Positions 3,391 through 43,704 of a stretch of 51,468 bases of DNA are shown here, in pieces. The number at the start of each line of letters is the position of its first letter. Position 1 is the stretch's first letter. The stretch spans positions 1 through 51,468 of the forward strand of contig JAUSLA010000015.1 of the NCBI GenBank assembly GCA_030646565.1, in the 5' to 3' direction. This DNA is from a bacterium (lineage in GTDB: Bacteria > Patescibacteriota > Minisyncoccia > Minisyncoccales > RBG-13-42-11). The notes below the pieces were generated by a model. It made no database searches. It was not told where the DNA came from and saw nothing but the letters and a program-made list of their open reading frames with translations. The position numbers and the translations under genes were made by a program.

Positions 3391-4095
3391 TTAAGACCCG
3401 TTCTTAAATTTTAGCATTCTGAAAAATTCGGCATATCTATATCCCTTCTTTTTTCCTGCAATTTTAGACCATGCCCTTACTTTATTTTCAATTGCTTTTA
3501 AATCAGCTATCTGGCTTGAATGTTGAGATAAGGCCTCTATTTTCTTATCAATAGTTTGAGTAATATCAATAAATTTATTCGGTTTTTCGGTGGCGAAAAA
3601 CCAAATTTCTTTTATTTGGTGCGGCTGATATCCTTGTTTTAAAAGTTCGGGAAAAAAAGAGGCGGAGCCGGCGGCTGGATATATTGAATCAAAAACCGCT
3701 TCCGCTGTTTGGCGATGATCCCGATGAAAACGATGAGGATTATCAAAGCTATGGTTAGCGGGATCAAAACTCAAAATTATCTCCGGTTTTACTTTTCTGA
3801 TTATCTGAACTATTTTTTTTCTCAGAAATTGAGTGTTTTCAATTTCTCCGTCTTTCAATCCCAAAAAGAAGACATTATTTACCCCCAAGACATTGGCCGC
3901 TCTTTTTTGTTCTGTTTGCCTAATTTTTGCTAATTTTTTTGAAGAAAATTTAACTTTATGGCTGCCCTTTGACCCATCACTAATAATCAAATAAAATACC
4001 TCGTTATTTTCTTGAGCCATCTTTGAAATTGTGCCGGCGCAGGTGAAATCTAAATCATCGGGATGGGCTGAAATTGCTAAAAATTTATTTTTCAT
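3391..4095 (-). CDS. PIG-L/LmbE family deacetylase
   Basis: The protein has FLAISAHPDDLDF and a HRDH motif. I chose ATG 4095 (MKNKFLAIS); the track start at 4119 would overlap iscU by 35 nt. Confidence 0.7.
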   Translation of the reverse strand: MKNKFLAISAHPDDLDFTCAGTISKMAQENNEVFYLIISDGSKGSHKVKFSSKKLAKIRQTEQKRAANVLGVNNVFFLGLKDGEIENTQFLRKKIVQIIRKVKPEIILSFDPANHSFDNPHRFHRDHRQTAEAVFDSIYPAAGSASFFPELLKQGYQPHQIKEIWFFATEKPNKFIDITQTIDKKIEALSQHSSQIADLKAIENKVRAWSKIAGKKKGYRYAEFFRMLKFKNGS

Positions 4096-39286: not shown

Positions 39287-39343
39287 AGGGCGAAGAGAAC
39301 TGCGTTCTCTTCTTCACCTTCGTCCCGCCTTGCGAGACTCGGT
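39287..39343 (-). repeat. Family A element
   Basis: The sequence is AGGGCGAAGAGAACTGCGTTCTCTTCTTCACCTTCGTCCCGCCTTGCGAGACTCGGT. Confidence 0.85.
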
Positions 39344-39398
39344 AAATTAAGGTAAATTATGATAAAGTGAAAATGTATTTTCCATTATACCACACACT

Positions 39399-40907
39399 AT
39401 GAAAAATAAATTTTATATTACAACCACTCTTCCTTATGTAAACGCAGAGCCCCATATCGGTTTTTCTTTAGAAATTGTTCAGGCCGATGTTATTGCCAGA
39501 TATCAGAGGGCTTTGGGCAAAGATGTTTTTTTTAACACCGGAACCGACGAACACGGGCTGAAAATTTACCGCAAAGCATTAGAAGAAAATAAAAACCCCC
39601 AAGATTACGTTGACGAATACGCCGCAAAATACGAGTGCCTCAAAAGGGCTTTGAATTTAAGCTACACCAATTTTATCCGCACCACCGACGCCCATCACGT
39701 TTTAGCTGCCCAGAAATTTTGGATACGTTGTCTGAAAAACGGAGATATCTATAAAAAAAACTATAAAATCAAATACTGCGTTGGCTGCGAACTGGAAAAA
39801 ACCGATTCAGAATTAGCAAAGGGAAAATGTCCCATTCATCCTAATCTGTCCTTAGAGCAAATAGAGGAGGAGAATTATTTTTTTAGATTTTCCAAATACC
39901 GACAGCCACTCCTTGATTTTTACAAGAAATACCCTGACTTTGTAATACCGGTGTCCAGATTTGCTGAAGTGAAAAGTTTTATTAGACAAGGGCTTCGGGA
40001 TTTTAGCGTTTCGCGACTTAAAGAAAAAATGCCTTGGGGTGTTCCGGTTCCAGGAGACGATTCTCAAGTTTTTTTTGTTTGGTTTGACGCTTTGATCAAT
40101 TATATTTCCGCTTTGGGTTGGCCCGAGCAAAAGAAGAATTTTCGGGCATATTGGGGAAATAAAAGAAACCCTAACGCCCTTCAAGTTGCCGGTAAAGACA
40201 ATTTGCGCCAGCAATCAGCTATATGGCAAGCCATGCTTATGTCTGCCGGCCTTCCTAATTCAAGGAAAATTATTATACACGGATTTATTACCGTTGCCGG
40301 CCAGAAAATGTCCAAAAGTTTGGGAAATGTGGTTTCTCCCTTTGAATTGGTCAAAAAATACGGGACTGACCCTGTAAGATATTTTCTTTTGCGGGAAATT
40401 CCACCGACCGAGGACGGCGATTTTACCTATGAGAAGTTTGAATCAAGATATAATTCTGATTTGGCCAATGGATTAGGAAATTTGGCGGCGAGAGTAATAA
40501 CGCTTGCAAAAATTTCTAATACCGAGCTTCCACTTGTGGAAGCGAAGGTGAAGAAGAGAACGGAGTTCTCTTCGCCTTTCAAATTTCTAATTTCCAAACA
40601 AATCCAAAATCCAAAATTCAAAACAACAATAAACAAAACTTGGGGAAAATATCACAAGGCTTTAGGCGAATTTAAGTTTAATGAGGCGTTAGTTGCAGTT
40701 TGGAATTTAATTGGTTTTTGCGACCGTTACATTGAAAAAGAAAAACCATGGGAAAAAAGCCAAAAACAAAAAGAAGTTATTGGCGATTTATTATTAGCTA
40801 TTAATGAAATAGCGAAACTTTTAGAGCCATTTTTGCCCGAGACATCAGAAAAAATCTTTCAGCAATTAAAAAATAAAAAAAGCAAATCTCTCTTTCCCAG
40901 AATCTAA
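39399..40907 (+). CDS. metG: Methionine--tRNA ligase
   Basis: The protein has TTLPYVNAEPHIGF (HIGH region) and KMSKSLGN. It carries one in-frame family A insertion. Confidence 0.9.
   Translation: MKNKFYITTTLPYVNAEPHIGFSLEIVQADVIARYQRALGKDVFFNTGTDEHGLKIYRKALEENKNPQDYVDEYAAKYECLKRALNLSYTNFIRTTDAHHVLAAQKFWIRCLKNGDIYKKNYKIKYCVGCELEKTDSELAKGKCPIHPNLSLEQIEEENYFFRFSKYRQPLLDFYKKYPDFVIPVSRFAEVKSFIRQGLRDFSVSRLKEKMPWGVPVPGDDSQVFFVWFDALINYISALGWPEQKKNFRAYWGNKRNPNALQVAGKDNLRQQSAIWQAMLMSAGLPNSRKIIIHGFITVAGQKMSKSLGNVVSPFELVKKYGTDPVRYFLLREIPPTEDGDFTYEKFESRYNSDLANGLGNLAARVITLAKISNTELPLVEAKVKKRTEFSSPFKFLISKQIQNPKFKTTINKTWGKYHKALGEFKFNEALVAVWNLIGFCDRYIEKEKPWEKSQKQKEVIGDLLLAINEIAKLLEPFLPETSEKIFQQLKNKKSKSLFPRI
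40521..40577 (+). repeat. Family A element in frame in metG (19 codons)
   Basis: ACCGAGCTTCCACTTGTGGAAGCGAAGGTGAAGAAGAGAACGGAGTTCTCTTCGCCT is translated as TELPLVEAKVKKRTEFSSP. Confidence 0.85.
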
Positions 40908-40910
40908 AAT

Positions 40911-41840
40911 ATGTTTACAGCTTTTGTCATTATTGTTGGGTTGGTGATTTTTGAGATAATCAGCAGCATTGATAACGCTATTATTAACGCTCATATTCTA
41001 AAAACAATGAGCGTTAAATGGCGGAAAATTTTTCTCTTCTGGGGTATTTTTACCGCGGTTTTTCTCGTCAGGGGCCTTCTTCCTTTAGCAATTGTTTGGC
41101 TGTCGGTTCCTGAAATTGGTTTTTGGGGAGTATTCCAATCAATGTTTAAGAGTTCGCCGGAAATTGCCCAGACAATAGAAGCAAGAAAGGGCATAATTTT
41201 GATTGGAGCCGGCGTTTTTCTTTTATTGATTTATCTTCATTGGCTATTTTTGGAAAAAAAAGACCCATTTTTTGTTTCTGACAAGTTAATAAAGCCGAAT
41301 TATGGGGTCTGGTTTTTTGCTTTTGCCGCCATAATTTTAGTCTCCCTTTTGTATCTGGCAAGAAATTCTTACCAACTAATGTTATCTGCCGCTATAGGTT
41401 ATGCCGTGTTTTTTATTATGTATGGTTTTCGCGAGCAAGCGGCCAAAGAAGAGGCAAGACTGGAGGGTGGCCAGTCACATTTGAGTAATTTTTCAAAATT
41501 AATGTTTCTTGAAGTATTGGACACTTCTTTCAGTTTTGACGGAGTCATTGGCGCTTTTGCTTTTACCACTGCAATCCCTTTAATTTTTTTGGGAAACGGA
41601 ATAGGAGCTTTGGTTGTAAGACAATTGACTATCAGCGGCATAGAGCGGGTGGAAAAATACAAATGGCTGAAAAACGGGGCAATGACTTCAATAGGAATTT
41701 TAGGCGTTTTTATTATTGCCAAAAGTTTCGGCGTCCATATTCCAGAATACTTGCCCACCTTAACGACTATCGGGCTTGTAGGTTTAACCTTTTGGAGGTC
41801 TCATCAACTTTTAAAAAAGAATAACCAAGGTGCTAATTGA
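40911..41840 (+). CDS. Integral membrane protein (DUF475/TerC-like)
   Basis: The protein is polytopic and contains SSIDNAIINA. Confidence 0.55.
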   Translation: MFTAFVIIVGLVIFEIISSIDNAIINAHILKTMSVKWRKIFLFWGIFTAVFLVRGLLPLAIVWLSVPEIGFWGVFQSMFKSSPEIAQTIEARKGIILIGAGVFLLLIYLHWLFLEKKDPFFVSDKLIKPNYGVWFFAFAAIILVSLLYLARNSYQLMLSAAIGYAVFFIMYGFREQAAKEEARLEGGQSHLSNFSKLMFLEVLDTSFSFDGVIGAFAFTTAIPLIFLGNGIGALVVRQLTISGIERVEKYKWLKNGAMTSIGILGVFIIAKSFGVHIPEYLPTLTTIGLVGLTFWRSHQLLKKNNQGAN

Positions 41841-41916
41841 CACCCATTCCCATTTGAACCCCGAAGGAGAAAACTTCGTTTTCCCTACGGGGCAAGTTTC
41901 AACGCTTTTATGTTAA
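41830..41916 (+). other. 28-codon upstream ORF: a duplicated tatD N-terminus interrupted by a family B element
   Basis: The GTG start overlaps the upstream gene's stop. The ORF encodes VLIDTHSHLN, then element-derived codons, and its stop TAA (41914-41916) overlaps codons 2-3 of tatD. Confidence 0.55.
41859..41896 (+). repeat. Family B hairpin element (38 nt)
   Basis: The sequence is CCCCGAAGGAGAAAACTTCGTTTTCCCTACGGGGCAAG. Confidence 0.75.
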
Positions 41917-42818
41917 TTGACACTCACTCGCATTTAAATTTCAACGCCTACAAAAATGATGCAGATGAAGTGATAAAAAGAGCACTAGACAATGATATCT
42001 GGATGCTCAATGTCGGCTCGCAATTTTCCACCTCAAAAAGGGCGGTTGAAATAGCCGAAAAATATCCAAAAGGAGTGTATGCCGCCGTCGGCCTTCACCC
42101 AATACATTTAACTGAAGGAATTTTTAAAACAAAAATTGATACAGAAGAAATTGAATTTAAAAAAGCTGAAGAAGATTTTTATTACGAAAAATATAAAGAA
42201 TTAGCCCGATCTAAAAAAGTTGTCGCTATCGGCGAGGTTGGTTTAGATTATTATTATCGGCCAAAAACAAAAACAAAACTTGAACAGTTCAAAAACAAAC
42301 AAAAAGAAGCGCTTTTGGCGCAGTTGGCTTTAGCCAAAGAGCTGAATTTGCCAGTAATTTTCCATTGCCGTTCAGCACATAAGGATTTGATAGAAATCCT
42401 CAACTATAAAACAAGAACTACAAACTATAAACCGAATGGAGTAGTTCATTGTTTTACCGGAAATTTGGAAGAGGCAAAACAATATCTGGAATTGGGGCTT
42501 TATCTTGGTTTGAACGGGATAATTTTTAAGCTGGAGGTCGCTGAGACTTCGTCTCATCTCTCATCTCGTGCGGCTTCGCCGCACTCGGTTTTAGACGAAG
42601 TTATCAAAAATATTCCTTTAAATAGAATTTTAGTTGAAACAGATTGCCCCTATTTGACGCCGCCACCTTTTGAAGGACGAAATGAACCTTTGTATATTAA
42701 ATCAGTTGTCCAGCGAATAGCTGAAATTAAAAATATGAACTACGAGGAAATAGCTAAAATTACTACTGAAAATGCCAAAAAATTATTTACCGAGTTCCGT
42801 GAAGCGGAACGAAGGTGA
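41910..42818 (+). CDS. tatD: TatD family metal-dependent hydrolase
   Basis: The protein has MLIDTHSHLNF, GEVGLDYY, FHCR, HCFTG and VETDCPYLTP. It contains one internal family A insert, and a second copy supplies the last 9 codons and the stop. Confidence 0.9.
   Translation: MLIDTHSHLNFNAYKNDADEVIKRALDNDIWMLNVGSQFSTSKRAVEIAEKYPKGVYAAVGLHPIHLTEGIFKTKIDTEEIEFKKAEEDFYYEKYKELARSKKVVAIGEVGLDYYYRPKTKTKLEQFKNKQKEALLAQLALAKELNLPVIFHCRSAHKDLIEILNYKTRTTNYKPNGVVHCFTGNLEEAKQYLELGLYLGLNGIIFKLEVAETSSHLSSRAASPHSVLDEVIKNIPLNRILVETDCPYLTPPPFEGRNEPLYIKSVVQRIAEIKNMNYEEIAKITTENAKKLFTEFREAERR
42534..42590 (-). repeat. Family A element in frame in tatD (19 codons)
   Basis: GAGGTCGCTGAGACTTCGTCTCATCTCTCATCTCGTGCGGCTTCGCCGCACTCGGTT is translated as EVAETSSHLSSRAASPHSV. 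Confidence 0.8.
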
Positions 42819-42844
42819 AGAAGAGGACGCAGTCCTCTTCGCCT
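42789..42844 (+). repeat. Family A element (near-consensus) spanning the tatD stop
   Basis: The sequence is ACCGAGTTCCGTGAAGCGGAACGAAGGTGAAGAAGAGGACGCAGTCCTCTTCGCCT. The stop TGA at 42816-42818 lies in the linker. Confidence 0.9.
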
Positions 42845-42867
42845 TTCAAAAATTTAAATCAAAATTT

Positions 42868-43704
42868 ATGCCAAAAGTCGCAATTATCGGAGGAAGCGGG
42901 GTTTACGACTCCGGAATTTTTAAAAAGGAAAAAGAGGTTAGAATAAAAACTCCGTTCGGCTATCCTTCCTCGCCAATTGAAATCGGCGATTTTCTGGGCC
43001 CCGAAGGAGACGCTTCGCGACCCTACGGGGCAAGCCAAAAAATCGCTTTTTTGGCAAGGCACGGAAAGAATCATCAATTTCCTCCGCATAAAGTTCCTCA
43101 AAAAGCCAACCTTTGGGCTTTGAAAAAACTAGGCGTTGAAAGAATAATTGGAATTTGCGCTGTCGGCTCTTTAAAGAAAAGTTTTAAGCCGGGAGACATT
43201 GTGATTTGCGATCAGTTTATAGATTTTACCAAAAAACGGGAATACACTTTTTATGATGGTTCGACGAGCTCACCACTTAGCAGTAAGGCGATACACATTT
43301 CTTTGGCCGACCCTTTTTGTCCTGAATTAAGAAAGTTATTTTTTAAAGAAGCGAAAAAGCTAAAAATCCCAGTTCATCAAAAAGGGACTTATCTTTGCAT
43401 CGAAGGGCCGAGATTTTCAACTCGGGCGGAATCAAAATTCTTCAGAAATTTTGCCGATATTATTGGAATGACTTTAATTCCTGAAGCGGTTTTGGCCAGA
43501 GAATTGGAGATTTGTTATTTATCTTTAGCTATGGTAACCGATTACGATGTTTGGCAAGACAGCCCTGTAAGCGCGGAAGAAGTGATAAAGACAATGAAAG
43601 ACAACTTGGAGAAAATCAAAAAATTATTAAAAAATACCATTCCTCAAATTAAAATTCAAAGAAATTGTCCTTGCAAAACAGCTCTCAAAAACGCCAAAAT
43701 TTAA
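42868..43704 (+). CDS. mtnP: S-methyl-5'-thioadenosine phosphorylase
   Basis: The protein has MPKVAIIGGSGVYD, FLARHG, GPRFSTRAE and GMTLIPEAVLARE. I placed the start at ATG 42868. Confidence 0.85.
   Translation: MPKVAIIGGSGVYDSGIFKKEKEVRIKTPFGYPSSPIEIGDFLGPEGDASRPYGASQKIAFLARHGKNHQFPPHKVPQKANLWALKKLGVERIIGICAVGSLKKSFKPGDIVICDQFIDFTKKREYTFYDGSTSSPLSSKAIHISLADPFCPELRKLFFKEAKKLKIPVHQKGTYLCIEGPRFSTRAESKFFRNFADIIGMTLIPEAVLARELEICYLSLAMVTDYDVWQDSPVSAEEVIKTMKDNLEKIKKLLKNTIPQIKIQRNCPCKTALKNAKI
42999..43034 (+). repeat. Family B hairpin element in frame in MTAP (36 nt)
   Basis: CCCCGAAGGAGACGCTTCGCGACCCTACGGGGCAAG encodes most of the GPEGDASRPYGAS segment. It lies just before the conserved FLARHG. 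Confidence 0.75.

Follow-up and report, generated by a model that had tools for sequence, protein, structure and literature searches.

A doubled tatD start in a Patescibacteria contig, with its upstream copy split by a palindromic repeat

Why would a gene carry its own beginning twice, the first time broken by a small repeat and the second time intact? The question is raised by the tatD locus of contig JAUSLA010000015.1 (assembly GCA_030646565.1), whose 51,468 nucleotides (nt) of forward strand are referred to here as the window. The source genome is that of an uncultured member of the candidate phyla radiation (CPR), or Patescibacteria, since the closest homologues are labelled Nealsonbacteria, Paceibacterota and similar. 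The doubled start is real, reproducible and common to distant lineages. On balance, we favour an explanation in which a palindromic element broke the old tatD start, a block consisting of the element and a replacement start took over, and the two copies of the start are alleles of different lineages brought together by recombination.

The tatD gene (41910..42818, + strand) encodes a TatD-family hydrolase of 302 amino acids (PF01026; protein P0001), the N-terminus of which, MLIDTHSHLNFNAY, lines up with that of homologues from the first residue onwards. The downstream copy of the start, the functional one, is formed by the first 38 nt (41910-41947) of the gene. The preceding gene (40911..41840, +), taken from the list of open reading frames (ORFs), encodes a DUF475/TerC-like membrane protein of 309 amino acids (PF04332/PF03741, precomputed for the identical protein P0121), and its TGA (41838-41840) lies inside the upstream copy. 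Part 1 of the upstream copy (41830..41858, +) comprises a GTG, codons 2-9 and two bases of codon 10 (VLIDTHSHL, then AA); it overlaps the TerC-like stop by 11 nt, with the GTG and the TGA sharing GTGCTAATTGA (41830-41840). Next comes an element of 38 nt (41859..41896, +; CCCCGAAGGAGAAAACTTCGTTTTCCCTACGGGGCAAG), which includes AAGGAG and interrupts codon 10 at AA^T. Part 2 of the upstream copy (41897..41905, +; T TTC AAC GC) runs from position 3 of codon 10 to position 2 of codon 13 and is identical to 41939-41947 at 9/9 positions. A TTTT junction (41906..41909, +) links the upstream copy to the ATG at 41910; it is unlike the bases preceding the first copy (CAAG) or trailing the second (CTAC). 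The junction sequences of the block are CATTTGAACCCCGAAGG and GGGGCAAGTTTCAACGCTTTTATG, with the degenerate form AACCCCGAAGGAG...CCCTACGGGGCANGTTTYAAYGCTTTT. The broken copy as it stands forms an upstream open reading frame (uORF) of 28 codons (41830..41916, +; MLIDTHSHLNPEGENFVFPTGQVSTLLC), and its TAA (41914-41916) overlaps tatD codons 2-3 in ATGTTAA.

When the element (41859-41896) is deleted, the remaining 29 nt and 9 nt make up a 38-mer that matches 41910-41947 at 32/38 positions, and the upstream copy is in frame with ATG 41910 at a distance of 42 nt, or 14 codons. The six differences (GTG/ATG, CTA/TTA, ACC/ACT, CAT/CAC, TCC/TCG and TTG/TTA) bring about no amino-acid change, P ~1e-4; this and the other P values for the copies come from a random-substitution simulation and give the chance that as many changes would spare the peptide, the start codon and the open frame. 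A first-pass annotation of this DNA had proposed a doubled tatD start whose upstream copy was broken by a repeat, copies that differ at synonymous positions only, and a 28-codon ORF with its GTG in the preceding stop region and its TAA over tatD codons 2-3. The coordinates and the alignment bore out this description, with the six differences in 38 positions resolving into five synonymous changes plus GTG/ATG, and the likeness of the two copies held under formal alignment. Chance is excluded as the source of the match. A scan of both strands of ~0.8 Mb for genes whose first decapeptide is repeated upstream at >=8/10 returned four other matches, in L009, L012 and L016. A recent tandem duplication in place was rejected, as the copies are neither near-identical nor random by codon position (P ~1e-4).

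The copies differ in the way that alleles of strains or species do, and the window is a metagenome-assembled contig, so that the doubled start might have been produced by concatenation of two strain alleles during assembly. The probability of such an artefact is negligible. First, the independent assembly L123, built by Logan from run SRR13727527, agrees with window positions 39297-42810 over all 3514 nt (100% identity). Second, the same architecture is found in two further runs and lineages, L109 and L110. Third, the join is not at a shared k-mer, the 9-nt repeat being followed by TTTTATG in one copy and by CTACAAA in the other.

The element that splits the upstream copy belongs to a true palindromic repeat family, called family B here. 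It is unique within the window at <=3 mismatches, and a second copy of the family (42999..43034, +; 36 nt) lies in frame in a PNP/MTAP-like gene, to which it adds PEGDASRPYGAS, so that the window holds two family-B copies per 51 kb. The second insertion is missing from the orthologues in L111 and L001. The ends CCCCGAAGGAGA...CCCTACGGGGCAAG are identical in the two copies, and the family ends are also present in L109 and L110. The hairpin of the copy at the tatD start has a predicted RNA folding energy of -18.3 kcal/mol (z = -4.0), and all family-B copies fold stably (-16 to -20 kcal/mol, z -2.6 to -4.0), with a central stem that varies while its pairing is preserved (AAAAC/GTTTT, GAAAC/GTTTC, GACGC/GCGAC). 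No flanking direct repeat was found at the two family-B copies, and no transposase was seen in the window, where no search aimed at transposases was made. Scanning 41000-43500 against Rfam (E <= 1) yielded nothing, and a search for promoters and terminators yielded nothing beyond a weak terminator-like match within the element, which is unconserved in L109. Both insertion sites lie near the centre of a dyad symmetry of the host sequence, TTGAA^T TTCAA in tatD and TTTTCTGG^GCCAAAAAA at 42999-43034, which may hint at a preference for hairpin or palindromic targets.

The window is rich in other GC-rich hairpin repeats. The intragenic copies that were checked (the 36-nt copy in the PNP/MTAP-like gene and a copy of ~54-60 nt further into tatD) are in frame and stop-free, and the long ORFs bearing other GC-rich elements are uninterrupted; because of this, the intragenic elements appear to be translated rather than skipped. 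Literature searches brought up no account of palindromic elements within the coding sequences of CPR bacteria.

Two Logan contigs assembled from different runs, L109 (protein P0006) and L110 (P0099), carry the block as well. In both, the TerC-like stop overlaps ATGCTCATTGA...CATGTTAA, a 37-nt family-B element sits at the same split codon (AA^T), and the element is followed by T TTT AAT GC (TTTTAATGC), TTTT, 36 extra nt and a new ATG. Compared to T TTC AAC GC in the window, T TTT AAT GC is synonymous in the frame that skips the element. The 36 extra nt contain GGAGG-N8-ATG (MKQTCF), and the complete second start, ATGTTGATAGAT..., comes next. Because GCTTT repeats border these 36 nt, they would represent either a later insertion or a deletion in the lineage of the window. 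Between part 1 and the new ATG there are 51 nt in the window and 86 nt in L109/L110, with no ORF and no recombinase. The tatD genes of L109 and L110 are 73-74% identical to that of the window at the amino-acid level, and third-position identity is 0.51-0.56, which is near saturation. A single origin of the block is argued for by the GCTTTT junction, which is common to the window, L109 and L110, and by the identical point of insertion. Further block-bearing loci were sought through P0004, P0070, P0011, P0038, P0123 and P0065, and the block was found in none of them; no source of the 36-nt spacer or of the TTTT junction was found among the loci compared.

Which of the two starts is the older one? 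The order metG, TerC-like gene, tatD is found in L001, L037, L048, L110, L111, L113, L114 and L120, and the best relatives of the window share 74-78% protein identity in tatD and 79-80% in the TerC-like gene. In the element-free syntenic loci L001, L037, L048, L114/L115 and L120/L121, the ATG of tatD lies across the TerC-like stop. The overlapping sequence reads ATGYTNATTGA in L001, L037, L048 and L114, in the same place as GTG 41830 of the window, and a related overlap with one extra codon, ATGGAGCTAATTGA, is found in L120/L121. The position of the overlap in these relatives indicates that the upstream copy is the ancestral tatD start and that ATG 41910 is secondary. As a separate observation, the codons before GTG 41830 in the tatD frame (41815-41832) read (stop)KRITK, and the homologues P0012, P0058, P0073 and P0095 begin MKRIT-LIDTHAH; KRITK may be what is left of a longer, older N-terminus, or the agreement may be fortuitous.

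An unbroken start is seen in L114/L115 (P0070), which has no element and one tatD start. Its TerC-like gene is 88% identical at the nucleotide level to that of L110, uniformly along the gene, and is the closest among the loci compared. The start and the TerC tail (..ESHAH*) of L114/L115 are orthologous to the upstream copy of L109/L110. Thus alleles with the element (L109/L110) and without it (L114/L115) were both found in relatives, and the upstream segment is an orthologous tatD start. As read from these alignments, the copy that is broken in L109/L110 still serves as the start in a close, possibly sister, lineage.

The substitutions between copies were compared across the loci. In L109, the upstream and downstream copies show 11 differences in 38 positions with two conservative replacements (A/S and V/L, each of them frequent at the start of TatD proteins). 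The upstream copies of the window and L109 show 10 differences with two conservative changes (P ~3e-4), and those of L109 and L110 show three differences, all synonymous (P ~0.012). The L109 upstream copy differs from the starts of other genomes at 6-10 positions. Third positions are saturated between upstream and downstream copies, and the 9 nt 3' of the element vary only synonymously in the element-skipping frame. By this pattern, the upstream copies behave like protein-coding sequence held by purifying selection. Gene conversion of one copy by the other was considered and rejected, since their likeness within a genome is no greater than that between genomes.

Comparison of L109, L110, L113 and L114 over alignment positions 1-930, all from Logan runs with neighbouring SRR2238xxxx accessions, revealed discordant relationships along the locus. 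The TerC-like gene of L110 is closest to that of L114 (0.88); along this gene the two are uniformly 86-98% identical. Positions 1-210 of the L109 tatD gene do not discriminate L113 from L114, and nt 211-570 are closest to L113 (0.78-0.89, vs 0.65-0.83 for L114). From ~nt 630 to the end (roughly 300 nt), L109 and L110 are 100% identical, vs 75-80% over nt 211-570, and L109 and L114 are 97-98% identical over windows spanning ~nt 630-750, a tract of roughly 100 nt.

A tract of exchange is also visible in the window itself. The tatD gene contains another palindromic element (42534..42590, +), in frame and reading approximately VAETSSHLSSRAASPHSV. Positions 42479-42598 are 98-100% identical to L112 (~1171-1260) against a background of ~70%; the tract consists of the in-frame element (59/60) and ~50 nt of upstream coding flank, and was exchanged horizontally. 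Taken together, the L112 tract and the patchwork of L109, L110, L113 and L114 show that elements with their coding flanks move between lineages by homologous recombination and that tatD is a mosaic. The tatD genes of the window and L112 are ~73% identical overall. Related inserts occur at the 42534-42590 site in P0005, P0021 and P0032, with none in P0003, P0004 and P0006. A different in-frame element of 42 nt, PAPYRTDGSGAGLN, is found in the same tatD loop, between NGIIFK and LDE(V/I)I, in L041 (4604), L042 (4109), L043 (3893) and L048 (3825); the loop is either an insertion hot spot or the sole tolerated site.

These observations fit the following course of events, which we consider somewhat probable. 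A family-B repeat would have landed in the original tatD start, splitting codon 10 and shifting the frame, and an intact second start would have come to stand at ATG 41910, separated from the element by the remaining nine bases of the old copy and by TTTT. The former start of the resident genome would survive as the upstream copy, functional until the block arrived or still exchangeable with intact alleles, and the downstream copy would have come in with the block. Homologous recombination in the TerC-like and tatD sequences on either side could move the block or take it out. Since the two copies would have evolved as alleles of separate lineages, their differences should be confined to synonymous sites, saturated there and free of homogenisation, as is observed. 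The synonymous-only divergence is best explained by such interlineage recombination, not by local duplication. The view of the first-pass annotation that the locus does not resemble a recent tandem duplication is upheld by the same evidence, namely an upstream copy at the ancestral position, an orthologue of it that is functional in L114, and shuffled tatD alleles.

Two routes would fit the first formation of the block. It may have formed by an in-frame duplication of 42 nt followed by insertion of the element; alternatively, tatD DNA of foreign origin may have rescued a start broken by the element and left a single illegitimate junction, at GC|TTTT. The first route, if followed by vertical descent alone, leads to another explanation of the entire locus, in which a single ancestral 42-nt in-frame tandem duplication had its first copy hit by the element and was lost in L111, L113 and L114. 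Removal of the element leaves the copies in frame at a spacing of exactly 42 nt (14 codons), the window, L109 and L110 have the GCTTTT junction in common, and loss through recombination between repeats is easy in principle. We nevertheless hold a vertical relic to be rather unlikely. Its third positions are saturated, yet there are 0-2 conservative changes and no stops (P 1e-4 to 3e-4), and a relic would not decay in this manner where tatD itself is just 74% identical. Furthermore, at least two losses are needed, the start of L114 is orthologous to the upstream copy and is not a hybrid, and the discordance between TerC-like gene and tatD is left unaddressed.

Several points weigh against the recombination of alleles that we favour. 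First, the origin of the first block is left unexplained by it. Second, no near kin of the window lineage was found (best 74-80% amino-acid identity), and because there is no close relative the arrival of the block in this lineage is undatable and not directly visible. Third, identity between the window and L109 is raised only within the element (33/36) and not in the flanks, so that no recent transfer tract is visible at the locus. Fourth, L114 might instead have lost the block. Fifth, should the block be of long standing in this lineage, a clean upstream copy with synonymous changes only is unexpected (P ~1e-4), and an old block together with the synonymous-only differences between L109 and L110 would indicate real selection on the upstream peptide.

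A further proposal makes the ~80-nt block itself the transferable agent. It would be a mini-insertion made up of the hairpin, then T TTY AAY GC and TTTT, and lastly ten codons from the beginning of tatD; by supplying its own gene start, it would spare the gene that it hits. It would spread among diverged CPR lineages by homing-like conversion or transformation, and the old start would be reused as a relay uORF that keeps tatD coupled to the preceding gene. Flanking coding sequence might be co-converted during its spread, as it was with the in-frame element that L112 has in common with the window. We regard this proposal, taken as a whole, as unlikely.

With exactly 38 nt (window) or 37 nt (L109/L110) skipped, the changes in both flanks of the element are all synonymous, as would be expected if the upstream copy were itself decoded as part of TatD, with ribosomes from GTG 41830 bypassing the element, as in T4 gene 60 or the mitochondrial 'byp' elements, or with the element being removed from the mRNA. 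An Asn codon, AAC, across the left junction is a candidate take-off site, an in-frame Asn codon (AAC in the window, AAT in L109) could serve for landing, Asn codons being common in this AT-rich sequence, and the element is a stable hairpin. Decoding of this kind is, however, highly improbable. CCC GAA and not a stop follows the take-off AAC, and the other intragenic elements checked are in frame and stop-free. The product would bear a redundant N-terminal repeat of 12-14 residues, a complete independent start is present, and the upstream-type start is an ordinary start in the close relative L114. The read-through N-terminal extension of P0006, used as a protein query, matched nothing. A conserved programmed frameshift was also rejected, as 38 nt in the window and 37 nt in L109/L110 would require opposite shifts.

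What, then, is the role of the 28-codon uORF in the window? Stop and start codons overlap at both of its ends, in GTGCTAATTGA (41830-41840) and in ATGTTAA (41910-41916), and this geometry is compatible with coupling of the uORF to tatD by termination and reinitiation. The uORF would take over ribosomes terminating on the TerC-like gene and release them at the tatD ATG. Such a two-step relay is plausible because the ancestral arrangement is a direct stop/start overlap, and we consider it possible, in a tentative way, that the uORF preserves the ancestral translational coupling; otherwise, tatD initiates alone at 41910 and the uORF is a by-product. Two points speak against the relay. The ATGTTAA overlap is specific to the window and absent from L109/L110, in which the TAA of the uORF lies 13 nt after the element and 25 nt before the separate GGAGG-N8-ATG. 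In addition, a motif resembling the Shine-Dalgarno (SD) sequence <=20 nt from the start was found for ~6/39 long ORFs of the window, a rough estimate based on the starts of the longest ORFs; initiation in this genome seems to be largely SD-independent, and with SD-less initiation as the rule, an SD-independent start at 41910 is plausible. Since most genes of the window are without an SD sequence, its absence before ATG 41910 says little. Long-range RNA pairing was predicted between the two start regions in the window and not in L109, and was taken as incidental.

Insertions at the beginning of tatD are also found in other relatives. In L038 (~3947-4010), L039 and L044 (P0039, P0096), the start consists of ATGTTAATTGAT, an in-frame insert of 42 nt (ALIHSASTLSKIEW) and GTTGATACCCAC; the product reads MLID...VDTHAH, and an ATTGAT/GTTGAT repeat borders the insert. 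In L116, L117 and L118 (2501-2570; P0011), tatD begins MMLVKEDKSSFPSFAAAR-LIDTHAH, with an in-frame insert of ~45 nt after codon 2 and a doubled Leu codon (TTA...CTA). The insertions suggest that the first tatD codons may attract such events in this group. At the other end of the gene in the window, a family-A repeat, GAGTTCCGTGAAGCGGAACGAAGGTGAAGAAGAGGACGCAGTCCTCTTCGCC (42787-42845), overlaps the tatD 3' end and swaps the usual C-terminus (...KKLF[KRG]I) for ...KKLFTEFREAERR; the Logan contig L123 breaks within this repeat.

Compared to known systems, the locus shows partial likeness to several. In E. coli, e14 and phage 21 integrate in icd, and other elements integrate at attachment (att) sites in tRNA genes, carrying a replacement gene end; in the icd type, the displaced and replacement ends differ mainly synonymously and have evolved as functional sequence in separate lineages. 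As in that type, an insertion in a gene is tolerated here, an intact copy of the displaced end adjoins it, and the ends differ as interlineage alleles do, with synonymous-only differences that are not homogenised. Unlike that type, the 5' end and not the 3' end is replaced, the inserted material comes to just ~80 nt (38 nt of hairpin, a further 13 nt and a new start of 29 nt) and includes neither an integrase nor an element body, and the hairpin lies within the old copy, not beside it.

Small palindromic repeats such as the Rickettsia palindromic elements, repetitive extragenic palindromic (REP) sequences and repeats resembling miniature transposable elements with inverted repeats (MITEs) can insert into coding sequence. 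The family-B elements share with them the short, GC-rich, multicopy hairpin with conserved ends and a compensating stem, and the in-frame presence in genes. The copy at the tatD start differs in being out of frame (38 nt) and in a start region, and, unlike MITE-like repeats, the elements show no terminal target duplication or associated transposase and number two copies in 51 kb.

Translational coupling through overlapping stop and start codons, with termination and reinitiation, is a classical mechanism. The stop/start overlaps at both ends of the uORF and the direct ancestral overlap between the TerC-like gene and tatD agree with it, whereas a two-step relay through a remnant ORF and a geometry unconserved in L109/L110 do not. 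Homology-facilitated illegitimate recombination is known in transformable bacteria; one homologous junction in tatD, one illegitimate junction (GC|TTTT) and a short duplication would by analogy resemble its products. It could explain the first rescue of a broken start, and no donor of the TTTT or of the 36-nt spacer was found. None of the known systems compared matches the locus on all defining features.

The locus provides an example of a streamlined CPR genome that tolerates palindromic repeats, in which copies inserted in frame appear to be translated and a second start makes up for an out-of-frame insertion at the beginning of a gene. The elements travel between lineages that are ~25-30% diverged, along with 50-100 nt of coding flank, and single genes become mosaics because of this joint movement. 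Apparent duplicates can therefore be xenologous alleles and not paralogues, which calls for caution in dating duplications and in inferring selection from synonymous-only differences. If the uORF does act as a relay, the scar of a mobile element would have been recruited to preserve operon-style translational coupling.

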